From positions 19,501 to 83,500 of the forward strand of contig CAINEY010000021.1 of the NCBI GenBank assembly GCA_903847945.1: a stretch of 64,000 nt of DNA, written 5' to 3'. How positions within the stretch are numbered: the first letter of the stretch is position 1; each line of letters opens with the position of its first letter. The notes beneath the pieces were generated by a model. It saw nothing but the letters and a program-made list of their open reading frames with translations. It made no database searches and was not told where the DNA came from. The position numbers were made by a program, and so were the translations under genes. Positions 8,027-59,828 of this stretch are shown one piece after another. The DNA is from an uncultured bacterium. GTDB lineage: Bacteria > Bacillota_I > Bacilli_A > Erysipelotrichales > Erysipelotrichaceae.

Positions 8027-9403
8027 ATGTCCGACACGTCGTCAAAACCGCACTTCTTATCTCAACCGCATCAGGACTTGGCTGCGATAACTCCCAAGAC
8101 TTTGCGCTTGCTCGATCAACTGCTTCCCGACATCAAACTGGTGATTTTTAACGGACGATCGATCATCGTGGATGAGGCTTTTGACGTGGCGTTCAATGCG
8201 TCCGAACGCGATGCGGTATTGCGGTATTTGACCCAAACCATCCTTGAACGGACCACCGATGAGTTTGATGCGTTGATTGCGGAAGCCAAAACGACCCGGG
8301 TCATCCACGTCACTTGCGTTCGGGTTACCTTCCGAAAAAAACCAGCCATCTTAGCCCTTCTCAACGATAAGACGGAGCACTATCACGGGATCTCTGACGA
8401 GGATCGTTTACACAAACTCCAAGAAGCCATCATTCGCATCAACACCTCAGCTTTAGTGGGGGATGATCTGCGCAAGACCTTGGATCTGATCCTCAGTGGA
8501 GCCGTTTTGGCGTTCCCCAAAGCCGGATTGGGAACGATTTTTACCCTCAACGGAGATCATTTTGAAGTGGTCAGTTCGATTGGCTATGACGAAGAGATCA
8601 AACGGTTCAAACTGCCGGTCGACAAGTCGTTTCTGTATTGGGAAACGGATGGAGCCATGGATCGCATCGCAATCGTCAACGACATCCAACAGCGTTATAA
8701 CTTTATTCCGGTCAAGACCATGATTGGGGATGAGACGTACCTGCACAGCTGCATGGTGGCTCCGCTCTTTTACCACAATAAACTCTACGGGATGATGAGT
8801 ATTGATTCGCTTCAACCTGATGCCTTTAGTCGTAGTGATATCGCAACGATGGAGTTTATCCGCAACAATGTCCAAATTGCCATCACGAATCAACTCACCT
8901 TTATCGAAAAATCCCGTCAGGCTTTAACGGATGCCTTAACGGGTTTGCATAACCGGCATTATCTCACCGAACAGCTCAACTTCGTCTTTGAGAAAGCCAA
9001 ACGCTTTGACGAGACATTCTGTCTGGCCGTGATCGATATCGACGATTTGAAGAAGACCAACGATCAGCACGGTCACTTGATGGGGGATCAGGTCATTCGG
9101 GTTTTAGGCTTGGCCTTGCGACAGACCTTGCGTCACAGCGACCTTTTGGTGCGTTATGGCGGAGATGAGTTCGTCGCCGTGTGTTTCACGGCCCATGCCG
9201 ATCAGCTTCAACTTCGCTTCAATGCGTTGGCTAAACAACTTCAGGACAGTCCCTTGCACAGTGATGAAGGAGATGTGATGATTCGATTCACGGTCGGAAT
9301 CGCTGTCTATCCGATCGATGCGACGACCCCGGAAGCCTTGATTGCTTTGGCGGATCAGCGCATGTATGCCCATAAACATCAACCGGGAGGGTCACATGAA
9401 TAG
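8027..9403 (+). CDS. Diguanylate cyclase with a GAF-like sensor and an intact GGDEF domain
   Basis: LTGLHNRHYL..VIDIDDLKKTNDQHGHLMGDQV..RYGGDEFVAV. All catalytic motifs are intact. Confidence 0.85.
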   Translation: MSDTSSKPHFLSQPHQDLAAITPKTLRLLDQLLPDIKLVIFNGRSIIVDEAFDVAFNASERDAVLRYLTQTILERTTDEFDALIAEAKTTRVIHVTCVRVTFRKKPAILALLNDKTEHYHGISDEDRLHKLQEAIIRINTSALVGDDLRKTLDLILSGAVLAFPKAGLGTIFTLNGDHFEVVSSIGYDEEIKRFKLPVDKSFLYWETDGAMDRIAIVNDIQQRYNFIPVKTMIGDETYLHSCMVAPLFYHNKLYGMMSIDSLQPDAFSRSDIATMEFIRNNVQIAITNQLTFIEKSRQALTDALTGLHNRHYLTEQLNFVFEKAKRFDETFCLAVIDIDDLKKTNDQHGHLMGDQVIRVLGLALRQTLRHSDLLVRYGGDEFVAVCFTAHADQLQLRFNALAKQLQDSPLHSDEGDVMIRFTVGIAVYPIDATTPEALIALADQRMYAHKHQPGGSHE

Positions 9404-11405
9404 TACCTTCCTTTTGGCCTTGGTGGAGAATGTGGAAATGCTGATTGCGTTGAGTGCGCTTTCGCAAGTCATCACCTTGCTGGATCGTAAACGCCCATGG
9501 TGGGAATCCGTGGTGCGTGGAATCGTGTTTGGACTTGTGGGTATTTTGATCATGATGTTCCCGTACACGTTGGAAGAAGGTATCACGTTTGATTCCCGTT
9601 CGGTGCTGCTTAGTTTGACCGGGCTATTCTATGGTCCGGTGACCACGATGATCGCCACAGGCCTGGTTTTGGTGGTGCGGATCTGGCGGGGTGGGGCTGG
9701 GGTTTGGATGGGGGCTTCAGTCATCCTGAGCTCGGCCTTGATCGGCTACTTTTGGCGCAAGATCCCCTGGTTTAGGAAACACCCCGGAACCTGGTTCGAA
9801 TTCTATGCATTGGGACTCAGTGTCCATGCGCTGATGGTGCTTTTAATGTTCTTGTTGCCTTCAAGTGTCATCCATCAAACGCAAGTCATGGTGGGTATTC
9901 CGGTGTTGATCACCTTTCCGATCGTGACCATCATTATCGGGAAACTCCTGAGCTTTCAAATCGATCGTCACATTGCTGCCCGACGCTTGGCTCATGCGGA
10001 AAAACAGTTGCGGACCATCTACAACAATGCCCCCATCGGAATCTTCCAAGCCGATCTGGATGGAAAATTGCTCAATGTCAACGCAGATTTTGCAACCATG
10101 TTGGGACAGTCGGAGTCATCCTTGGTTGGAAGCTCGTTGTTGAACGGGTTTACATTGCCCCTTCAACAAGCCCTTTCCGGAACGTTCAACCGTTTCAAAC
10201 AAGACACCTCCGAAGCCTTTCAGGTCGATGCTCAACTGATTACAGCCCACGGAAAAGCCATCTGGGTCTCCCTGCGCCTAAATCCGTTAACGCAAGACGA
10301 TGATCAAACTGTGGTGATCGGTTCCCTTCAAGACATTACCCAACGCAAATCCTCGGAACAGCTCTTTGAATTCCTGGCGACCCATGACGCTTTGACCGGC
10401 GCTTATAATCATCGGCACTTGGAAGAACGCATCGCTCAGTTGGAAGCAGAACACCGCTATCCCGAACCGGTCATCTGTGTCGATGTGGACAACCTGAAAC
10501 TGGTCAATGATGCCTTCGGCTACCATGCCGGAGATGAGCTCTTGCGTCAAACCTACAATGCTATCGCGTCGACACTCAACACGTCGGAGGAAATCTTCCG
10601 CGTCTCTTCAAGTCTCTTTGTGATCTTGGTTCCGTTCTTATCGGGGCAGGATCCGGAATGGCTGATCCGAAAACTGCATCGAGCCATTGAAGCCATTCGC
10701 ATCGATCGCATCGAACCCTCGGCTTCCATCGGGTATGCCCAACGGGACATCCACGATCGCATCCATGATCAGATCGAAGCCGCCGAAAAACACATGCGCC
10801 GGGAGAAACTGTTGACCAAAGACAAGACGGTCAACAACATGATCGATGTCATCATGAAATCCTTGTATGCGAAGAATCCGCGTGAAAGCGATCATTCGCA
10901 ACGGGTCAGCCGTATTGCGGTCAACCTAGGTAAACGTATGGCCTTGGATAAACACAGCCTGGAGAAGATCCGGATTGCCGGTTTGATGCATGATATCGGA
11001 AAGATCGGAATCCCTGAAACGATTCTCGATAAGACCGGCCCCCTCACCGAAACTGAACGGGCTGAAATGCAGGAACACGCGGTTATCGGGTATCGGATCC
11101 TCAACGCCACCAGTGAGTTTGCGGAGATCTCCGACATCATCCTCTCCCACCACGAACGCTGGGATGGAACCGGCTATCCCCGGGGATTGACTGCCGTGGA
11201 GATTCCTTTGGTGGCTCGTCTGATTGCCGTCGCGGATGCGTTTGATGCGATGACCTCCGATCGGCCTTACCGTAAAGCCTTAACGACAACTCACGCTTTG
11301 GAAGAACTGCGCAACCGTGCCGGAACACAGTTCGATCCGGATGCGGTCAATGTGCTTCTCGCACATTCAAAATCCATTCTCGCTGATGAAAAAACAACCG
11401 CTTAA
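9396..11405 (+). CDS. Membrane signalling protein: 5TMR-LYT sensor, PAS, degenerate GGDEF, HD-GYP phosphodiesterase
   Basis: N-terminal LytS-type 5-TM block and a PAS domain (NAPIGIFQADLDGKLLNVN). The GGDEF position reads SSSLF. HD-GYP is intact (HDIGKIGIP, HHERWDGTGYPRGL). ATG 9396 has a GGGAGGG RBS and overlaps the upstream stop by 8 nt. Confidence 0.85.
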   Translation: MNSTFLLALVENVEMLIALSALSQVITLLDRKRPWWESVVRGIVFGLVGILIMMFPYTLEEGITFDSRSVLLSLTGLFYGPVTTMIATGLVLVVRIWRGGAGVWMGASVILSSALIGYFWRKIPWFRKHPGTWFEFYALGLSVHALMVLLMFLLPSSVIHQTQVMVGIPVLITFPIVTIIIGKLLSFQIDRHIAARRLAHAEKQLRTIYNNAPIGIFQADLDGKLLNVNADFATMLGQSESSLVGSSLLNGFTLPLQQALSGTFNRFKQDTSEAFQVDAQLITAHGKAIWVSLRLNPLTQDDDQTVVIGSLQDITQRKSSEQLFEFLATHDALTGAYNHRHLEERIAQLEAEHRYPEPVICVDVDNLKLVNDAFGYHAGDELLRQTYNAIASTLNTSEEIFRVSSSLFVILVPFLSGQDPEWLIRKLHRAIEAIRIDRIEPSASIGYAQRDIHDRIHDQIEAAEKHMRREKLLTKDKTVNNMIDVIMKSLYAKNPRESDHSQRVSRIAVNLGKRMALDKHSLEKIRIAGLMHDIGKIGIPETILDKTGPLTETERAEMQEHAVIGYRILNATSEFAEISDIILSHHERWDGTGYPRGLTAVEIPLVARLIAVADAFDAMTSDRPYRKALTTTHALEELRNRAGTQFDPDAVNVLLAHSKSILADEKTTA

Positions 11406-36105: not shown

Positions 36106-36182
36106 AAGGCCTCTTGGTTTGATTTTAACACAGTCCCACTGTTTTTCGGATTGGGACTTGACGGGAACCACGGTAAGCTCTA

Positions 36183-36201
36183 ATATATCTATTAGATATA
36201 T
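36183..36201. promoter_or_regulatory. Perfect 9-1-9 palindrome, candidate PadR operator in the divergent intergenic region
   Basis: ATATATCTA-T-TAGATATAT ends 10 nt before the padR ATG (36212). Confidence 0.55.
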
Positions 36202-36211
36202 AGAGGTAACT

Positions 36212-36757
36212 ATGACCAGTACAGGCTATGTGATGATGGGATTACTCAGTGAAGGACCGTTGACCGGTTACATGATCAAGAAATTGATCGATGTTCGGTT
36301 TCGTTTCTTTTGGAGTGAATCGTATGGGCAGATTTACCCGGTGCTCCAACAATTAGTGAAACAGGGATGGGTCAATAGTGGTCCTGGAGAGCGGAAGTCT
36401 TCAAAGGTGTATACCTTAACTGAGGAAGGTCAAAAGGCTTTGAGTGAGTGGTTGATGTTGGCTCCAGTCAAGGCAACTTATCGGTTGGAGATCTTGATCA
36501 AGGTGTACTTTGCGCACTTGGCTCCAACATCAAGCCTAAAAGACCATCTTCACACTCATCTCCAGGAACACACCCAAGAGCTTGGTCTATTGAACGCTTT
36601 TAAACATGAACTGGAATCGATTCCCGATCCCCAAGGGGATCACCGTAACATCCTAAGTGTTATCGATTACGGGATTCGATATAATCAAGCCATTTTGGAT
36701 TGGAGTAACGCGACATTGAGTCGCTTGGAGGATTCGAATGAATCAAACGTGGCGTAA
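36212..36757 (+). CDS. PadR family transcriptional regulator (with C-terminal dimerisation domain)
   Basis: GYVMMGLLSEGPLTGYMIKKLI..SESYGQIYPVLQQLVKQGWV. Confidence 0.85.
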   Translation: MTSTGYVMMGLLSEGPLTGYMIKKLIDVRFRFFWSESYGQIYPVLQQLVKQGWVNSGPGERKSSKVYTLTEEGQKALSEWLMLAPVKATYRLEILIKVYFAHLAPTSSLKDHLHTHLQEHTQELGLLNAFKHELESIPDPQGDHRNILSVIDYGIRYNQAILDWSNATLSRLEDSNESNVA

Positions 36758-37460
36758 AGCGGTAGCCTTGATCAGTTTGTTGATTTTTCCGGTAACTATA
36801 AATTTCTTCTCGCCTTATGTCAGTATCGATGGAGCTTTCCAAGGCATCGTTTCCGGCAGTGTGCTTCTGTTTGGGGTGATGTTGGTGACGGCGATCTTCT
36901 TTCGACGCACCTGGTGCTCGACGATTTGTCCCAATGCGACACTTAGTGACGTGCTAGAAGGTATCAATGGTAAACGGGTCAATCGGATTCCGTTGCGATG
37001 GATCCGACTGGGAATCTTCACGGTGTGGTTTGGAGTTTTGGTGATGGGCTTCGTCATGGCAGGAGGTATCGTCAAGATCGATCCGTGGCATTTGACTGAA
37101 TCCGGCATCTCGGTGGATGAACCGATGAAGTACATTACCTACTTCATGGTGCTGGGAACCTTAGGGTTGGTAACGGCGTTGGTGGGTAAACGCGGATCGT
37201 GTCATGCGATCTGTTGGATGTCACCGTTTCTGGTGGCTGGAACGTGGATCGGTGAGAAGCTGAATCTGCCGCAATACCAGATCCACTCCAAACCGGAGGT
37301 GTGCATTGCGTGCAAGCGATGTACAACCGTGTGTCCCATGTCCTTGGATGTGCATCGCGAGCTCTTGATCGGCAAGATTCGATCAACCGACTGCATTACG
37401 TGTGGACGCTGTGTCGATGTATGTCCGAAAGCAGTCTTGAAAGCAGGGTTTAAACGATGA
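36738..37460 (+). CDS. Membrane-bound 4Fe-4S ferredoxin-type protein (NapH/MauN-like)
   Basis: TM helices, RRTWCSTICP, and two clusters CIACKRCTTVCP and CITCGRCVDVCP. Confidence 0.75.
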   Translation: MNQTWRKAVALISLLIFPVTINFFSPYVSIDGAFQGIVSGSVLLFGVMLVTAIFFRRTWCSTICPNATLSDVLEGINGKRVNRIPLRWIRLGIFTVWFGVLVMGFVMAGGIVKIDPWHLTESGISVDEPMKYITYFMVLGTLGLVTALVGKRGSCHAICWMSPFLVAGTWIGEKLNLPQYQIHSKPEVCIACKRCTTVCPMSLDVHRELLIGKIRSTDCITCGRCVDVCPKAVLKAGFKR

Positions 37461-53822: not shown

Positions 53823-54899
53823 TTAGAAGACGTTGTTGCGGAACTTGGAGATGAACTCGGCTCTGGAATTCACCAAGAGCTTATTGTAGATGGACGAGAT
53901 GTGCTTCTTGACGGTGATTTCGGTCACGAAGAGTTTTTTGGCGATTTCTAAGTTCGGTAAACCTTCCAAGAGGAGGTTGGCCACTTCTTTCTCACGGGTC
54001 GAGAGAATCGGGGAAACGAATTTGACCGGTTCGGCATCCAGGATCGGGGTTTCTCCGATGTGCTGGTTGTTGATGACGACGTTGAGCTGCGCCTTGCGGA
54101 TCATCTCATCCGCCGACATAGCTGTTTCCATTTGCGTACACGTACCAACGTTCATCGAGAAATGGATGCGCTTGTTGTCGACGGTCACGCGGGTGTCGTT
54201 GACCTTTTGATTGAGGCGTTTACTGAGCTGGAAGGCCGTCTTGTCTGAGGCTTGGTTGAGCACGATGATGAAGCGTAAGCCGTGATAGCGCACCACGAAG
54301 TCATCCGGGTGATCGCAGGCACTCATCAAGACTTTGGCCAATTGTTGAAGGACGTAGTTGCCAACTTGATTGCCGTAGGTGTTATTGATGAAGGCGATGT
54401 TGTTGAGACTGATGTACATCAGGGTCAACGGTTGGACGGTTTCGAGTGCTTTCTGAGAAAGGAGCGGGAAACGTTTGAAGAGGAAGTGAGCGGTATACGC
54501 TTGAGTCAGGCTGTCTTTAATAACATGGTGAGAACCGGTCAAGAGTTCCGGCAGGAGGGCTTCAGTGCTGGTCTCGGTTTGTTCGACCAGGGTATTACTG
54601 AGGTCTTTCATCCCTTCGAGCACCATTGCTTTACCGTCGACAGTTACCGGAAGGGCCATGACCAGCATGACTTTCTCTCCGGAACTTTTCAGGCGATGTG
54701 CCGGTTTACCGGTCTGAATCACTTCATCGATCAGGCAACTGGCACACTTCTTCCCCAGATTCCAGGCTTCATCGCAACTGAGTTCGATGGGGGAATCGGG
54801 AATGCGGGTTTGCGGGTCGATCAGGCGGAAATGATCAAAGAAGGCAGCAGTGACCTGTGCCGATAAGGCATCAAAAAGGGACAATGGAATCTGGGACAT
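53823..54899 (-). CDS. LuxR-family HTH regulator fused to a Cys-rich sensor and a catalytically degenerate GGDEF domain
   Basis: C-terminal LSTREKEVANLLLEGLPNLEIAKKLFVTEITVKKHISSIYNKL. The GGDEF-fold region has SLNN for DxD and YHGLRF for GGDEF. Confidence 0.75.
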   Translation of the reverse strand: MSQIPLSLFDALSAQVTAAFFDHFRLIDPQTRIPDSPIELSCDEAWNLGKKCASCLIDEVIQTGKPAHRLKSSGEKVMLVMALPVTVDGKAMVLEGMKDLSNTLVEQTETSTEALLPELLTGSHHVIKDSLTQAYTAHFLFKRFPLLSQKALETVQPLTLMYISLNNIAFINNTYGNQVGNYVLQQLAKVLMSACDHPDDFVVRYHGLRFIIVLNQASDKTAFQLSKRLNQKVNDTRVTVDNKRIHFSMNVGTCTQMETAMSADEMIRKAQLNVVINNQHIGETPILDAEPVKFVSPILSTREKEVANLLLEGLPNLEIAKKLFVTEITVKKHISSIYNKLLVNSRAEFISKFRNNVF

Positions 54900-55058
54900 G
54901 GGAACCTCGTGACCAGTGCAGGGGGGTGCACATCAAAGGTCGATTTTTATGCTACTATCATATCATATTCAAGTTAATTTGGTTGAATTGTTGAGTGTGC
55001 AAGTTCTTGCTTGTGATTATACTTTAATATATCACAAATTTAGAAGAAATAGAGAGTA

Positions 55059-55115
55059 TTTCACCACCTTTTTAATGTCTATGCTACACTATGGACAGAT
55101 AGGAAAGTGGTGAAA
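55059..55115 (+). promoter_or_regulatory. Predicted 5'-UTR structure that would occlude the SD region of the first rnf/nqr-like gene
   Basis: The outer stem pairs TTTCACCAC(C)TTT (55059..55071) with GAAAGTGGTGAAA (55103..55115), 12 bp with one bulge. The inner hairpin is GTCTATG..CTATGGAC (55077..55096). The ATG is at 55118. Confidence 0.35.
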
Positions 55116-55117
55116 CA

Positions 55118-56038
55118 ATGACACAAACAACATCGGTAGTTCCCGAGGTCGGCTTAAGTCAGCGAAAATTGGTGCTGGTTGAAGCGGCTTTGGGTATTTT
55201 GGTTCTTGCTTCGGCACTGATCTTTGGGGTGAATATCCTGCTGGTCGCTGCTGTCTCCATCGTTTCCGCACTGGTGGTTGAGTTGATCTTCGCCAAAGGA
55301 CGTAAACGTCCCTTGGATCGCGGATGGCTCTACACGCCGTTGCTGATTACCTTACTCTTACCTCCGACTTCGCCCTTGTGGATGGCAGCCATTGGCGCAG
55401 CCTTTGGTACGTTCTTCGGGAAAGCGGTCTTTGGAGGCTATGGACGCTACGTGTTCAATCCGGCCGTTGTAGGGGTTCTCTTCTTGACCTTCGCGTTTCC
55501 GACGTACATGCTGACGCGTTGGTTGGATCCGATCACCTCCGACATCGTTGCGACTGCTACACCGCTCATCACCCTCAAACGGGCTTTACCGTTTGATTAC
55601 ACGCCTCTACAGCTGCTCATCGGCAATGTCCCGGGTTCCACGGGTGAAACCGTTCGCTTGGCGATCCTGGTCTTGGGTGGTCTACTCATGGCCATCAAGG
55701 CGTTGGATTGGAAAGCACCGCTGACCTACATCGCCACCGTCTACGGACTCAACTTTGTGGGGATGCTGGTGGCTCCTGAGAAATTCAGAGATCCGCTGTT
55801 GTCCGTCTTGGTGGGTGGGGTCTTCCTGGCTGCCTTCCTGATCGTGGGGGATCCGGTGACCTCACCGAAACAAACCCCGGCGAAACTTCTGTATGGGTTT
55901 GGTTTGGGACTGATCACCGTGGTCATCCGTAACTTCGCTACCTTCCCGGAAGGCGTCACCTTCGCGCTGATCATCATGAGCCCGGTGGCTGCGCTGCTGG
56001 ATAGCGTCAAGTATTCTAAAGCAGGGAAAACGTCATGA
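55118..56038 (+). CDS. RnfD/NqrB-family membrane subunit (Rnf-sized, 306 aa)
   Basis: GAAFGTFFGKAVFGGYGRYVFNPAVVG, GNVPGSTGET, and ATATPL at the position of the FMN-threonine motif. Confidence 0.9.
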   Translation: MTQTTSVVPEVGLSQRKLVLVEAALGILVLASALIFGVNILLVAAVSIVSALVVELIFAKGRKRPLDRGWLYTPLLITLLLPPTSPLWMAAIGAAFGTFFGKAVFGGYGRYVFNPAVVGVLFLTFAFPTYMLTRWLDPITSDIVATATPLITLKRALPFDYTPLQLLIGNVPGSTGETVRLAILVLGGLLMAIKALDWKAPLTYIATVYGLNFVGMLVAPEKFRDPLLSVLVGGVFLAAFLIVGDPVTSPKQTPAKLLYGFGLGLITVVIRNFATFPEGVTFALIIMSPVAALLDSVKYSKAGKTS

Positions 56039-56622
56039 AACAATACACCAAGATGTTAACCTTCGTCCTGGTGATGGGGCTCTTCACTTCCGCCGTCTTT
56101 GTGGGGATGGAACTGTGGACGGGTCCGCTCATTGCCGCCAACGAAGCCAATGAAATCAAAACCACCATTCTGGATGCCTATGATGTGCCGTACACCTTAG
56201 GCAACATCACTGAAGTCTTCGACGAAAAAGTCGAAGTCAAGACGATCGACGAGATCACCTTCTACATCGACAAATCCACCGGACGCATCAGTTATCAGTT
56301 TGCCGGAGGCGGAGTCTGGGGCGAAATCATCGGGGTCATTACCTTAGAACCCGATTTCGAAACGATCGTACGCATTCGGGTCCTGGAACAACAGGAAACC
56401 CCGGGCTTGGGCGGCATCGTCGCAACCCCGAAATACCTCAGTACGTTTGTCGGGATCAAGATGCTTCCCCAATTGGAAATCAATCAACCCGACAGTGCCA
56501 CCAACAAGCCCAACGAAGTCGATACGATCACCGGGGCGACCCGCACATCCAAAGCCTTCGAAAGCATGTTGAATGTGAGTTACACTGCCGCTGCAGCGGC
56601 TTGGGCTAAAGGAGGGAACTAA
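56035..56622 (+). CDS. RnfG/NqrC-family FMN-binding subunit
   Basis: N-terminal TM anchor, QETPGLGG, and the flavinylation motif DTITGATRTS. ATGA overlap. Confidence 0.85.
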   Translation: MKQYTKMLTFVLVMGLFTSAVFVGMELWTGPLIAANEANEIKTTILDAYDVPYTLGNITEVFDEKVEVKTIDEITFYIDKSTGRISYQFAGGGVWGEIIGVITLEPDFETIVRIRVLEQQETPGLGGIVATPKYLSTFVGIKMLPQLEINQPDSATNKPNEVDTITGATRTSKAFESMLNVSYTAAAAAWAKGGN

Positions 56623-56623
56623 G

Positions 56624-57262
56624 ATGAAACTGATTCGCTTGCGCTATACACGCTGGTTCAATATCCTGCGCGATGGGATTTCCCGTAAGAATCCGATCGT
56701 CGTGACGGTCTTGGGGATCTGCAGTTCGCTGGCTATTACGAATAAAGTCGAAAATGCGATCACGATGGGCTTAGGGGTGACCTTTGTCACCATGATGTCC
56801 TCGGCGGTCATTGCGGCTATCCGTAACATCATCCCCTCCAAGGTACGCATGATTGCCTACATGGTTATCATTTCCACCTTGACCATTGCCTTCCAGTTGG
56901 TCTTGGCAGCGTATCTGCCGGCCATCAATAAGGCATTAGGCGCTTACGTCGGCCTCATCATCACCAACTGCATCGTCATGGGTCGTGCGGAAGCCTTCGC
57001 CGTAAAGAATCCGGTCCGCTACTCCTTGATCGATGGTTTCGCCTCCGGAATGGGCTACACCTTCGTTCTTCTGATGGCGTCCGTCATCCGTGAGATCCTG
57101 GCGTTTGGTACCCTCTTCAACATCCAGATCATGCCGGACACCTTCCCGACCTGGGCTGTTATGGCCTTGGCTCCGGGCGGATTCTTCGTGATCAGCCTGT
57201 TTGTTTGGGGCATCCGCGAATTTATCCGTTACTACGAATCCCCGGAAGGAGAAGTTGACTAA
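56624..57262 (+). CDS. RnfE/NqrD-family membrane subunit
   Basis: NPIVVTVLGICSSLA..GLIITNCIVMGRAEAFA. Confidence 0.9.
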   Translation: MKLIRLRYTRWFNILRDGISRKNPIVVTVLGICSSLAITNKVENAITMGLGVTFVTMMSSAVIAAIRNIIPSKVRMIAYMVIISTLTIAFQLVLAAYLPAINKALGAYVGLIITNCIVMGRAEAFAVKNPVRYSLIDGFASGMGYTFVLLMASVIREILAFGTLFNIQIMPDTFPTWAVMALAPGGFFVISLFVWGIREFIRYYESPEGEVD

Positions 57263-57837
57263 TGGACCTCACCCAACTCTTTATCTCTTCCTTGTTGACC
57301 AACAACATCGCCTTGGCCATGATCCTGGGGATGTGTCCCTTGATCGCCATTTCCACCAACGTCAAGAACGCCGTGGGAATGGGTGCTGCCGTCGTCTTCG
57401 TGGTCACCCTCACCGGCATCATCAACTGGCCGATCTATCAGCTGTTGGTGGCGACGAATACGCAAAACCTGGCCCTCTTGGTGTTCATCATCACGATCGC
57501 GGCCGTGGTTCAATTCCTTGAGATCTTCATGGAGAAAAACCTGCCGGCGCTCTATACGTCGTTTGGGATCTTCCTACCGTTGATCACCGTCAACTGCGTG
57601 GTCTTGGCGGTTTCCTTGTTCTTTGTCAATCGCGGGTATGACTTCGCTCAAACCGCGGTCTTCTCCTTCGGTTCGTCCTTGGGTTGGCTCTTGGCCATCT
57701 TCCTGGTCGCCGGCATTCGTCAGAAAGTCTTTGCGATCAGTGACGTTCCGCGCGGACTGGTTGGTAAAGGCATCGTCTTTGTCATTATGGGCATCCTGTC
57801 ATTGGCCTTTATCGGCTTCACAGGCCTGAAATTCTAG
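57262..57837 (+). CDS. RnfA/NqrE-family membrane subunit
   Basis: NNIALAMILGMCPLIA..GIFLPLITVNCVVL. TAATG overlap. Confidence 0.9.
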   Translation: MDLTQLFISSLLTNNIALAMILGMCPLIAISTNVKNAVGMGAAVVFVVTLTGIINWPIYQLLVATNTQNLALLVFIITIAAVVQFLEIFMEKNLPALYTSFGIFLPLITVNCVVLAVSLFFVNRGYDFAQTAVFSFGSSLGWLLAIFLVAGIRQKVFAISDVPRGLVGKGIVFVIMGILSLAFIGFTGLKF

Positions 57838-57847
57838 GAGGACCCCC

Positions 57848-58930
57848 ATGAACATCTACACTCCGATTATCTTAGTTGGCGTTCTGGTCATCATCACCCT
57901 CTTCATCATCCTCTTGGATAAGATGATGGGCGGTGGAAGCATGAAGAAGATCGTCATCAACGATGAACAAGTCATCGAAGTCGTCAATGAAGATACCGTC
58001 TTGGCGACCTTAGCTCAACACAAGATCTATGTGCCCTCTGCGTGTGGCGGTAAAGCCACCTGCGGGACCTGTAAGTTCCGCTTACTGGAAGGCGACACCA
58101 CGATCAAACCGACTGAAGAACCTTTTCTGAACGCTGCCGAGCGTGAAAACGGGACCCGTTTATCCTGTCAGCACAAAGTTCAGGGAGACATGAAGATTGC
58201 CCTTCCCGAAGAACTGTTGAGTGCTCAGGAATTCAAAACGGTGGTAGACAAAGTCGAAGACTTGACCTACGACATCAAACTGGTTCGCTTCAAACTCATT
58301 GAACCCAAAACCATCAGCTTCAAACCGGGCCAATACGCCCAGATCCGTGTTCCTGGTGTTGAAGTCATGCGGGCCTACTCCATGGCTTCCAATCCGGCCA
58401 TTACCGATTCCATCGAACTGATCATTCGTATGGTCCCCAACGGAACCGCCACGACTTTCGTGCACAAAGCACTCGAAGTCGGCGACAAAATCATCGTTCA
58501 GGGACCTTTCGGAAACTTCTTCCTGCGTGAAGACAGTAACCGTGAAATGATCTGCATCGCCGGTGGATCCGGGAAAGCCCCGATCCGCTCGATCTTGCAC
58601 TACCTGCGCGATCAAGGCATGCCTCGAAAAGTGAAATATTTCTTTGGAGCCAAGACCACCAAGGATCTCTTCTACACCGAAGAATTCCAAGCCCTTCAAA
58701 AAGAATTCCCCAACTTCACCTACATTCCGGCCCTCTCGGAACCCAAACCCGAAGAGAACTGGACCGGTGAGATAGGTCTCATCACGGATGTGGTGGACCG
58801 CTTGGTGGGTGATCTCTCCGAAGCGGAAGGCTACCTCTGCGGTTCTCCGGGCATGATCAACGCCTGCATCAAGGTGCTCAAAAAGCACGGGATGACCGAC
58901 GATAACACGCTCTACGATAAATTCTCTTAA
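57848..58930 (+). CDS. nqrF: NqrF-like NADH-oxidising subunit (TM anchor, plant-type 2Fe-2S, FAD/NAD(P)-binding FNR-like module)
   Basis: SACGGKATCGTC..RLSCQ, RAYSMAS, GGSGKAP, and ALSEPKPEENWTGEIGLITDV, which closely resembles Vibrio NqrF as I recall it. Confidence 0.9.
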   Translation: MNIYTPIILVGVLVIITLFIILLDKMMGGGSMKKIVINDEQVIEVVNEDTVLATLAQHKIYVPSACGGKATCGTCKFRLLEGDTTIKPTEEPFLNAAERENGTRLSCQHKVQGDMKIALPEELLSAQEFKTVVDKVEDLTYDIKLVRFKLIEPKTISFKPGQYAQIRVPGVEVMRAYSMASNPAITDSIELIIRMVPNGTATTFVHKALEVGDKIIVQGPFGNFFLREDSNREMICIAGGSGKAPIRSILHYLRDQGMPRKVKYFFGAKTTKDLFYTEEFQALQKEFPNFTYIPALSEPKPEENWTGEIGLITDVVDRLVGDLSEAEGYLCGSPGMINACIKVLKKHGMTDDNTLYDKFS

Positions 58931-58936
58931 GACAAA

Positions 58937-58962
58937 CGCACGGTTAAGCCGTGCGCTTTTTT
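58937..58962. terminator. Bidirectional intrinsic terminator
   Basis: CGCACGG-TTAAG-CCGTGCG followed by TTTTTT. Confidence 0.75.
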
Positions 58963-59828
58963 AACTGTGCCAGTAAGATTCCAGATGCCACCAAGGCGAT
59001 GCCGAGGAGTTGAAGCGGAGAGAGGGTCTCACCCAGAAAGAGATACGCCAGGATCGCCACTTGGATCAGCATCGTGTTGTTGATGAGGTTGGACTCGAGA
59101 GCGCTTAATGATCGCAAAGCCAGATTCCATAAGGTAAAGGCCAACGCCGAGTTGATCAAACCTAACCATAGAAGGGCTCCCCAATTGATTAGACTCAAGC
59201 TGGGAAATCCACTGATCGGTAGACTGATCAACAAAAGTGTCACACTTCCAAAACCCATACTGATCAAGGTTACACTGTAGGCATCCAAAGTATGACGCTG
59301 ATTGAGTTTGCGTCCCAAGAGGGCACTGAAGGCGTTGACGACGAGTCCGAATCCAGCCACCAACAACCCCGGTACTGATTGACTCAATCCGGTGTAAGGG
59401 TAGAAGTACAGAGCGATGCCACCTAAGAAGATTCCGATTCCGAGAAACTGTCGGTGGGTTGGTCGCTCGTTGAGCAGTCGCCAACCCAAAAGAGCGACCA
59501 GGAGGGGTGTAAAACTGAGCACCAGCGAGACACTGACCGCCGGGAGCATCGATAACGCCAGAAACTGAGCTCCTTGCGTCAAGGTAATAAAGACCAAGCC
59601 ATACAAAGCCAAAGGTATCCAATCCGATTGGTCGAGCTGTTGAAGACGCTTCAATCGACCCGTGAGAGCTCCAACAACCAACAGTCCAATAAACGCAATC
59701 GCATATCGTAACCCCGCAAACGCTAAGGGTGGAATGTCCGATAAACCGAATTTGATCAGGATCCAGGAGCTGGACCATAAAAACGTAACGATCAGGGCCA
59801 AGATGAGGGCAAATTTACGGGAGTTCAT
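58944..59828 (-). CDS. EamA/DMT-family transporter
   Basis: 10 TM helices in two EamA repeats (LWSSSWILIKFG..). I chose ATG 59828; there is no SD and TATAAT lies 6 nt upstream. Confidence 0.85.
   Translation of the reverse strand: MNSRKFALILALIVTFLWSSSWILIKFGLSDIPPLAFAGLRYAIAFIGLLVVGALTGRLKRLQQLDQSDWIPLALYGLVFITLTQGAQFLALSMLPAVSVSLVLSFTPLLVALLGWRLLNERPTHRQFLGIGIFLGGIALYFYPYTGLSQSVPGLLVAGFGLVVNAFSALLGRKLNQRHTLDAYSVTLISMGFGSVTLLLISLPISGFPSLSLINWGALLWLGLINSALAFTLWNLALRSLSALESNLINNTMLIQVAILAYLFLGETLSPLQLLGIALVASGILLAQLKKRTA

Follow-up and report, generated by a model that had tools for sequence, protein, structure and literature searches.

Introduction

What does a redox-driven sodium pump of the Rnf/Nqr type do when the genes for NqrA, RnfC and RnfB are all missing from its operon? 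The question is raised by five genes on the + strand at positions 55118-58930 of a 64-kb stretch of DNA, here called the window, from contig CAINEY010000021.1 (assembly GCA_903847945.1) of an uncultured bacterium of the Erysipelotrichaceae. To our knowledge, Rnf and Nqr are the two characterised members of this class of pumps, and the complexes that have been purified or solved all consist of six subunits. Judged from its sequence, the operon is an intact five-subunit relative of these pumps. Comparison with related loci suggests that such a pump can work with no more than the outward half of the electron path, which would lead from NADH, the reduced form of nicotinamide adenine dinucleotide, through NqrF and the intramembrane iron–sulfur pair to flavin mononucleotide (FMN) on the RnfG/NqrC-type subunit.

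The arrangement itself has precedents. NqrA-less nqrBCDEF operons were reported from Thermotoga thermarum and Thermotoga lettingae in 2014, with the reaction partner called unknown (PMC4148951). Manzoor et al. (2018) described an NqrA-less operon in C. ultunense, P. lettingae and Alkaliphilus metalliredigens and suggested an acceptor with a lower potential than quinone (PMC5924567). The 2018 announcement of 'Ca. Izimaplasma' ZiA1 lists NqrBCDEF and gives A. palmae as the only earlier Tenericutes example (PMC6256511). In these later reports, too, the reaction partner is called unknown. The window carries the same five genes in the same order and likewise lacks NqrA, but comes from a different, uncultured lineage with ~51 % GC. 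Our literature search found annotation-level mentions and no biochemical or structural study of an NqrA-less complex; a 2025 review of RNF and NQR mentions neither hybrids nor the carrier taxa, and an 'NQR-like' match in a 2026 riboflavin preprint proved irrelevant. The novelty that the initial annotation of the window saw in the arrangement therefore does not stand, as it is recurrent and already known at annotation level (PMC4148951, PMC5924567, PMC6256511), but it is still uncharacterised.

Results

Five intact subunits with mosaic affinities

The five open reading frames (ORFs) are co-directional, tightly packed and all intact. They encode an RnfD/NqrB-type subunit (hereafter D; 55118..56038, 306 aa, Pfam PF03116 NQR2_RnfD_RnfE, 6.5e-70), an RnfG/NqrC-type subunit (G; 56035..56622, 195 aa, Pfam FMN_bind, 7.5e-16), an RnfE/NqrD-type subunit (E; 56624..57262, 212 aa, Pfam Rnf-Nqr, 6.9e-56), an RnfA/NqrE-type subunit (A; 57262..57837, 191 aa, Pfam Rnf-Nqr, 3.4e-49) and an NqrF-type NADH-oxidising subunit (F; 57848..58930, 360 aa, Pfam Fer2, FAD_binding_6 and NAD_binding_1). 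D and G are joined by an ATGA overlap and E and A by TAATG, while G and E are separated by a 1-nt gap and A and F by a 10-nt gap. A Shine-Dalgarno-like sequence lies ahead of each of the five genes, and the same gene calls are found on public metagenome contigs that carry an identical NqrF-like protein. ORF calls, Pfam and a check of the sequence bear out the gene content, coordinates, junctions and motifs given in the initial annotation.

None of the five proteins reaches the curated NCBIfam cut-offs, whether of the rnf or of the nqr family, and D, G, E and A miss the subfamily cut-offs TIGR01946/47/48/43. The D protein is nearest to RnfD, with 187 bits for rnfD (cut-off 207) and 140–156 bits for the nqrB models, and 118–124 bits for RnfD and 90 for NqrB chains in the PDB. 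It has the size of an RnfD and lacks the N-terminal extension of NqrB: aligned to the V. cholerae protein, it begins to match at NqrB residue 123-132. The next three subunits lean slightly towards Nqr in their PDB matches: 38–45 bits for NqrC and 26–28 for RnfG (G), 164.5 for NqrD and 160 for RnfE (E), and 147 for NqrE and 145 for RnfA (A). The F protein is best matched by nqrF (277 bits, under the cut-off of 295). It has 360 residues compared to 408 in Vibrio NqrF, and it matches NqrF in the PDB with 196 bits in two stretches that skip approximately V. cholerae residues 179-207, a Vibrio-specific insertion; the next-best PDB matches are BenC/MmoC-type reductases at ~139 bits. Identities to V. 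cholerae Nqr and C. tetanomorphum Rnf are 34 % and 35 % for D, 49 % and 44 % for E, and 44 % and 43 % for A, respectively. Since these values are similar in both directions, the operon represents a third lineage with mosaic affinities, in line with the mosaic Rnf/Nqr character first noticed in this locus.

The cofactor sites expected of a working complex are present in each subunit. In D, the FMN site reads D142-I-V-A-T-A-T148-P, and T148 aligns with T156 of A. woodii RnfD, the residue that carries FMN (PMC11889175). Residue mapping to the same structure places N114 and D245 at the positions of the riboflavin ligands. The ATAT of this site had been regarded as aberrant, perhaps leaving a single covalent FMN in the complex. 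That view does not hold: the solved RnfD subunits of A. woodii and C. tetanomorphum read TTATP at the aligned position, so the site is a near-normal Firmicute RnfD motif, and it is in many relatives of the window operon, not in the window, that the D site has been lost. The inner positions of the ApbE consensus D-x-x-[S/T]-G-A-[S/T] tolerate change (PMC12052999), and the D FMN site of the window is probably functional. As a separate observation, residue 241 of D is Leu in the window but Phe in 67 of 69 sequences (window counted) and Tyr in one. The equivalent residue in A. woodii RnfD is F245, which is among the Phe residues formerly proposed as a gate for Na+ in NqrB, and its alanine variant in A. 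woodii has no growth phenotype (PMC11889175).

G combines a perfect flavinylation motif (D163-T-I-T-G-A-T169) with a single hydrophobic N-terminal anchor (residues 5-29) and an FMN-binding domain on the extracytoplasmic side. E contributes Cys33 and Cys116, and A contributes Cys25 and Cys112, as the two halves of the intramembrane 2Fe-2S site. The LPxxTVNC motif of A and the ITNC motif of E map to the Na+-binding region near the A/E cluster of A. woodii Rnf, where LPxxTVNC matches RnfA residues placed near the A/E Na+ sites and a Na+ path through RnfA/E has been described (PMC11889175). The F protein has an N-terminal transmembrane anchor, a 2Fe-2S ferredoxin domain with C66, C72, C75 and C107 (CGGKATCGTC), a flavin adenine dinucleotide (FAD) domain with the RAYS motif (RAYSMAS) and an NAD domain with GGSGKAP.

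Constraint on the outward half of the electron path and on D

We scanned one genome per species with the NqrF-like protein and analysed 80 of the ~577 loci detected; the NqrF identities of these loci are 48–75 %, and comparisons between them lack phylogenetic independence. Homologs of the NqrF-like protein number in the thousands, the closest coming from Acholeplasma, Izemoplasmatales and 'Tenericutes' metagenome-assembled genomes (MAGs). The nearest loci are in MAGs labelled Erysipelotrichaceae (L019, L001 and L049; 58–80 % identity per subunit), followed by Acholeplasmataceae and Izemoplasmatales, and cultured carriers are Paracholeplasma vituli, Liberiplasma polymorphum, Peloplasma aerotolerans, Acholeplasma granularum and A. 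oculi. Other loci come from Petrocella, Vallitaleaceae, Omnitrophota, Spirochaetota and Planctomycetota. By sequence comparison, the window belongs to the clade of NqrA/RnfC-less operons of Acholeplasmatales, Izemoplasmatales and related Bacillota MAGs, which we call Mollicutes-type. The order D-G-E-A-F is kept in each of the 80 loci long enough to show it. For 41 Mollicutes-type loci the upstream DNA extends over 1.5 kb or more, and in all of them an RnfC/RsxC-like gene is absent from the fetched region; an RsxB-like match is absent from all 80 loci. An ApbE gene lies within 10 kb in one of the 80.

The residues that would carry electrons outwards are almost perfectly conserved. In E, Cys33 and Cys116 are invariant in 73 of 73 relatives and the ITNC motif in 72–73 of 73. 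In A, the same is true of Cys25, Cys112, L105, P106, T109, V110 and N111 (77–78 of 78, with one ambiguous residue at C25), and the LPxxTVNC motif is invariant in 78 of 78. All four Cys of the ferredoxin domain of F are invariant in 78 of 78 relatives, and each of the variants of the G motif that were tabulated for the related loci has the flavinylation Thr.

D departs from this pattern. Among 53 Mollicutes-type operons, the FMN Thr and its loop are deleted in 8, and in 7 the Thr is substituted; a further 15 have a non-canonical preceding residue and 23 are canonical. In the other groups the motif is canonical in 16 of 16 operons, eight with RnfC and eight from Spirochaetes. The clear losses are scattered over several separate lineages of the tree. 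Likewise, 14 of the 53 Mollicutes-type operons, versus none of the 16 others, have a change at the riboflavin-ligand Asn (N123 in A. woodii RnfD), and the Met beside it is invariant in the RnfC-bearing and Spirochaete groups and variable in the Mollicutes-type. The window and its closest relatives L019, L049 and L016 keep canonical D motifs.

The difference extends to the whole protein. We compared the divergence of D at matched divergence of NqrF, in bins of 0.5–0.6, 0.6–0.7 and 0.7–0.8. Over these three bins D identity is 0.37, 0.45 and 0.49 in the Mollicutes-type group, compared to 0.53, 0.61 and 0.67 for RnfC-bearing pairs, and 0.58 and 0.68 for Spirochaete pairs in the upper two bins. Conservation of E and A is, if anything, higher in the Mollicutes-type than in the other groups. 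These comparisons suggest that D is under relaxed constraint only where RnfC is absent in the Mollicutes-type clade.

In the A. oculi group this loss is accompanied by an expansion of G. Its G subunits are 515–821 residues long; their flavinylation-type motifs number up to five, and at least four FMN_bind domains score (L065:6276-8741, L046:5169-7283, L057, L056 and L044). In the operons with these giant G subunits the D FMN loop is degenerate or deleted; the D protein of L046 has 270 residues, and its match to the RnfD profile is split in two around the missing loop. Multi-flavinylated RnfG proteins have been read as routes to extracytosolic acceptors by Meheust et al. (PMC8238504).

Six-gene sister operons and the origin of the five-gene clade

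In eight loci (L037, L040, L064, L067, L068, L070, L077 and L078) a gene with RnfC_N, Complex1_51K and 4Fe-4S domains stands directly upstream of D. Coordinates of these RnfC genes are L037:103-1248, L040:5880-7133, L067:5439-6938, L068:279-1790, L070:5362-6879, L077:4708-6240 and L078:4045-5529. The RnfC of L067 passes the curated rnfC model TIGR01945 with 274 bits versus a cut-off of 246. Since a true RnfC and an NqrF are both encoded, these six-gene RnfC-D-G-E-A-NqrF operons, found in Petrocella, Vallitaleaceae, Omnitrophota and Planctomycetota, would unite two NAD(H)-type modules in one complex. We found no description of such operons in the literature searched. A polyprenyl synthase gene directly follows NqrF in L040, L061, L064, L067 and L070.

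We built a neighbour-joining tree of concatenated D, E and A (689 columns, 100 bootstraps) with references from E. coli (Rsx), C. tetanomorphum (Rnf) and V. cholerae (Nqr), the last two being aligned parts of the chains. The Mollicutes-type five-gene clade, which includes the window together with the Izemoplasmatales and Acholeplasmataceae loci, is monophyletic with a bootstrap value of 100; for the published NqrA-less operons, the comparison covers these two groups. The clade is sister to the Clostridial RnfC-bearing operons (bootstrap 100), and the two together are nested with RnfC-bearing operons of Omnitrophota and Planctomycetota (bootstrap 82). V. cholerae Nqr groups with the five-gene clade of Spirochaetes (bootstrap 72) and falls outside all surveyed loci in 7 of 100 bootstraps. 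Because the five-gene clade is nested among RnfC-bearing operons, the absence of RnfC is likely to be derived. The clade is most likely the product of a six-gene RnfC-D-G-E-A-NqrF ancestor that lost rnfC, and the simplest reading of the tree is that RnfC was lost independently in the Mollicutes-type and Spirochaete lineages. The window operon thus looks like a reduced derivative, where the secondary loss of RnfC rests on a simple method and few outgroups.

The Spirochaete five-gene operons retain all D redox sites. They also share a conserved soluble ORF of 154–157 residues that starts 16–25 nt past the NqrF gene (L062:11093-11557, L069:9181-9648, L071:11102-11572 and L075:4471-4944; also L072-L074 and L076). 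Pfam, NCBIfam and the PDB gave no match to this ~155-residue protein, which might be a new partner subunit in place of RnfC/NqrA.

The locus and its neighbourhood

The operon is complete at its locus, with no space for a sixth subunit, as the initial annotation had concluded. Upstream, 218 bp of intergenic DNA (54900..55117, no strand assigned; 36 % GC vs 53 % in the operon) form a promoter region shared with a divergent gene for a GGDEF and LuxR/GerE protein (Pfam). It holds a single weak sigma-70-like match at 55092-55119, and promoter-scan matches are no better than in shuffled sequence. A 65-codon ORF at 54916-55113 was considered as a hidden sixth subunit and is taken as spurious, having no homolog in related loci and no call on the public contigs. 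Downstream, an intrinsic terminator on the + strand (58937..58965) consists of a hairpin at 58937-58955, with an 8-bp stem of which six are GC pairs and a 3-nt loop, followed by a T-run (CTTTTTTAAC), and overlaps the stop codon of a convergent gene for an EamA transporter (Pfam).

A tblastn search of the 64-kb window with three RnfC sequences and the E. coli proteins RsxB, RsxC and ApbE found no homolog of rnfC, rnfB, nqrA or apbE. The sole match, a weak one, is to a generic 4Fe-4S domain near 37.3 kb. We rejected it as rnfB since it belongs to a NapH-like Fer4_5/4Fe-4S membrane protein behind a PadR regulator and has no FMN-binding partner. This gene pair, at 36119-37460, encodes the PadR-family regulator and then a 240-residue membrane protein with Fer4_5 and a C-terminal 4Fe-4S dicluster, a NapH-like polyferredoxin. 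An rnfC gene elsewhere in the genome, which the initial annotation named as grounds for refutation, is likely to be a trivial finding in relatives, since they carry separate complete rnfCDGEAB operons (PMC11122141, PMC6256511), and is no proof that RnfC serves the five-gene complex. Genes for quinone biosynthesis or cytochromes are likewise absent from the 64-kb window, which is weak evidence, and the rest of the window looks fermentative, with phosphotransferase system (PTS) regulators, DegV and an anaerobic-type glycerol-3-phosphate dehydrogenase cluster. Several cyclic di-GMP signalling proteins (GAF-GGDEF, 5TM-PAS-GGDEF-HD and GGDEF-LuxR) are encoded at 8027-11405 and 53823-54899; the GGDEF-LuxR neighbour is not kept beside the operon in related loci.

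Clustering of 486 flanking ORFs from the 80 loci gave several recurrent neighbours, none of them universal or an obvious partner. These include ABC transporters, RidA, aldehyde dehydrogenase, EamA and Hsp90, and we likewise rejected ribonucleotide reductase, a beta-eliminating lyase, malic enzyme and a CoA-disulfide reductase (CoADR)-rhodanese-TusA-DsrE fusion. Two of these neighbours merit description. The aldehyde dehydrogenase gene adjoins the operon in eight Mollicutes-type loci, upstream in L013, L018, L020 and L079 and downstream in L021, L023, L038 and L039, and may be a local source of NADH. The fusion is an 817-residue protein of CoA-disulfide-reductase-type Pyr_redox_2, rhodanese, TusA and DsrE domains, resembling an NAD(P)H persulfide/polysulfide reductase, whose convergent gene lies ~45–55 nt past the NqrF gene in four loci (L002:3199-5652, L003, L009 and L049). 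It is of interest because sulfur and thiosulfate stimulate the growth of Peloplasma, though its position may be a coincidence of synteny.

Discussion

The comparative data point to a complex that may deliver NADH electrons at the membrane's outer face rather than to a quinone. A hydride from NADH would be passed to the FAD of NqrF. Single electrons would then move from the 2Fe-2S cluster of NqrF to that of E/A, carrying Na+ outward as proposed for A. woodii Rnf, and on to the FMN of G at the outer face of the membrane. From there they would be handed to an extracytoplasmic acceptor, which might be O2, a sulfur compound, a free flavin or some other redox protein at the surface. The net effect would be to regenerate NAD+ for a fermentative cell and to build up a sodium gradient without a quinone pool. 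In the A. woodii model, Na+ moves with the electron through A/E and RnfD serves electron transfer only (PMC11889175). If this model holds, the outward half of the path is enough for Na+ pumping, and this would account for the decay of the redox sites of D after the loss of RnfC. We put the probability that the outward path from NADH through NqrF, E/A and the FMN of G to an external acceptor is the main mode of the clade at roughly 0.45. More tentatively, the complex may be a self-sufficient, quinone-independent respiratory Na+ pump to a surface flavin, with D becoming a non-redox scaffold in many lineages. Among the functions first considered for this locus, the one that fits the comparative data best is the third, in which NADH electrons reach the G/C subunit's extracytoplasmic FMN and then an outside or alternative acceptor. 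Since the FMN and riboflavin sites of D are intact in the window and its nearest relatives, a return leg through D may still operate there; in the window operon this second leg would lead from G to the FMN and then the riboflavin of D, and on to a membrane or cytoplasmic acceptor.

Several points weigh against the outward path. The D subunit of the window keeps T148, N114 and D245, and the full U-shaped path may be in use. D is always retained, which is unexpected if it is redox-dead; we assume a scaffold role for it towards G and E/A. For Nqr, the passage of Na+ through A/E is disputed, and NqrB has been put forward as the channel, a location that would alter the argument (PMC10643135, summarised in PMC12174285). 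ApbE is required for flavinylation, and the 64-kb window has no gene for it; the neighbourhoods of the Mollicutes-type loci contain no conserved accessory gene that hints at the acceptor. The phylogeny is a neighbour-joining tree only, with one partial Nqr reference and two Rnf references. Finally, the growth of Peloplasma is not stimulated by anthraquinone-2,6-disulfonate (AQDS) or ferrihydrite, nor by nitrate or sulfate, and its O2 consumption is small (PMC11122141).

The physiology of this cultured carrier bears on most of the alternatives. Peloplasma aerotolerans M4Ah (L031) has an intact operon with the D motif G-D-I-V-G-G-A-T-P, while the paper describing the organism makes no mention of an nqr-like operon. 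That paper reports no detectable respiratory quinones, no terminal (cytochrome) oxidases and no quinol oxidase, and a separate complete rnfCDGEAB cluster. Cultures reach ~2x density at 2 % O2 and a 2.5–3x yield with elemental sulfur (S0) or thiosulfate (PMC11122141). An intact operon in an organism without quinones implies that quinone is not needed.

This observation weakens the quinone-reducing version of the minimal NADH-driven ion pump already raised in the initial annotation. Here the five subunits would constitute a full NADH:(mena)quinone oxidoreductase, with quinone reduced at D by riboflavin and NqrA dispensable. The idea is reasonable in so far as NqrA has no cofactor or assigned function and structures place the quinone in NqrB (PMC12174285, PMC11889175); the window D retains its FMN and riboflavin sites, E and A are slightly nearer Nqr than Rnf, and several six-gene relatives have the polyprenyl synthase gene directly after NqrF. 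However, D is RnfD-sized, scores higher for RnfD than for NqrB and lacks the ~100-residue N-terminal region of NqrB, and its redox sites are lost in 15 of 53 operons of the clade that are otherwise intact. Together with the missing quinones and quinol oxidase of Peloplasma (PMC11122141) and, as weak evidence, the lack of quinone-biosynthesis and cytochrome genes in the window, this leads us to regard a minimal Na+-NQR as unlikely. We are equally doubtful of a retained U-shaped path whose partner is encoded at another site in the genome; here the riboflavin of D would pass electrons to the RnfC of the separate rnfCDGEAB operon, borrowed for this purpose, to another soluble redox protein or, in a membrane NADH oxidase, to O2 in direct reaction with the exposed flavin. 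The canonical D motifs of the window, L019, L049 and L016 speak for such a path, complete separate rnf operons do exist in relatives (PMC11122141, PMC6256511), and replacement partners are conceivable given the Spirochaete operons, where all D sites are kept beside the conserved 155-residue ORF. The doubling of Peloplasma cell yield under microaerobic conditions (PMC11122141) is a further point in favour. Against such a path, many carriers are strict anaerobes (PMC5924567, PMC4148951). A complex of NqrF with RnfC would oxidise NADH merely to re-reduce NAD+, no co-conserved partner gene is found near any Mollicutes-type locus, and the constraint on D is relaxed across the clade.

Two further explanations concern the history of the operon rather than its electron path. 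That the five-gene form is a living evolutionary intermediate between Rnf and Nqr, as the mosaic affinities and the sub-threshold scores for both families might suggest, now appears quite improbable. V. cholerae Nqr does fall inside the NqrF-bearing radiation, with just 7 of 100 bootstraps putting it outside all loci, but the five-gene clade is itself nested among six-gene operons with RnfC (bootstrap 100 and 82). Moreover, the transitional state expected from the literature has NqrF in place of RnfB and an RnfC that still carries cofactors (PMC4014512, PMC12174285), which fits the six-gene forms and suggests that they are better candidates for it than the five-gene operons. The other explanation, a decaying rnf or nqr remnant beside an unrelated FNR-like reductase, draws on the scores of all five proteins below the curated cut-offs and is effectively refuted. 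The five ORFs are intact and translationally coupled, the same order recurs in all 80 loci long enough to show it and in several phyla, the cofactor ligands of E, A, F and G are invariant, and the last gene has an NqrF-specific transmembrane anchor and its best match in NqrF.

With the outward path as the preferred reading, the operon can be set against the systems that are known. It shares with Na+-NQR (nqrABCDEF; V. cholerae 7xk3/8a1t) the NqrF-type input module with its transmembrane anchor and 2Fe-2S, FAD and NAD domains, the NqrD/E-type pair with four Cys, the NqrC-type FMN subunit and the B-C-D-E-F order, and its D subunit keeps acidic residues equivalent to D346 and D397 of NqrB. It differs in lacking NqrA, the first gene of the nqr operon, in whose place the divergent GGDEF-LuxR gene is found. 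Its D subunit is RnfD-like and has 306 residues compared to the 415 of NqrB, without the N-terminal region, and its NqrF is 48 residues shorter, without two Vibrio-type insertions. All its proteins score under the nqr equivalog cut-offs, and a quinone acceptor is doubtful. With Rnf (rnfCDGEAB; A. woodii 9eri, C. tetanomorphum 7zc6, A. vinelandii 8ahx) it has in common the D-G-E-A core, whose genes are in the same order and which has two flavinylation sites and the four Cys that hold the A/E 2Fe-2S cluster. Its D, nearest to RnfD, carries a Firmicute-type xTATP site as well as the riboflavin ligands, and the Na+-site motif of A/E is kept. It differs from Rnf in lacking RnfC and in having NqrF in place of RnfB. 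The replacement of RnfB by NqrF implies that the donor would be NADH and not ferredoxin, and the lack of RnfC that there would be no NAD+-reducing output module.

Two further comparisons concern systems of other architecture. The multi-FMN G subunits of the window's clade are shared with the systems of Meheust et al. 2021, but the NQR/RNF-like single-path systems of that study are built on a fusion of the NqrB/RnfD membrane domain with a C-terminal NAD-binding domain (PF03116 and PF00175 in one protein) and have no E/A pair or NqrF (PMC8238504). The D protein of the window contains PF03116 only, and PF00175 is found in the separate NqrF-like protein. Flavin-based extracellular electron transfer (EET) in Listeria (Ndh2, EetA/B, PplA and FmnB) is similar in that a fermentative organism of a Gram-positive lineage passes electrons from NADH to surface FMN domains flavinylated by ApbE/FmnB. 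The proteins, however, are unrelated save for the FMN-binding domain, a demethylmenaquinone pool is needed and there is no ion pump.

Genome papers have recorded a version of these pumps without NqrA or RnfC for over a decade and have called its second substrate unknown. The invariant NqrF-E/A-G half, the decaying D sites, the multiplied FMN domains of G and a quinone-free host turn this into a specific, testable hypothesis. The six-gene RnfC-D-G-E-A-NqrF operons are of separate interest as candidates for the long-postulated transitional form between Rnf and Nqr. If the outward path is indeed used, it would support ion translocation tied to the A/E step in this enzyme class and define a minimal pump for structural work. 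It would also mean that Acholeplasma-like, wall-less and other fermenters conserve energy from the regeneration of NAD+ without quinones, cytochromes or a terminal reductase.

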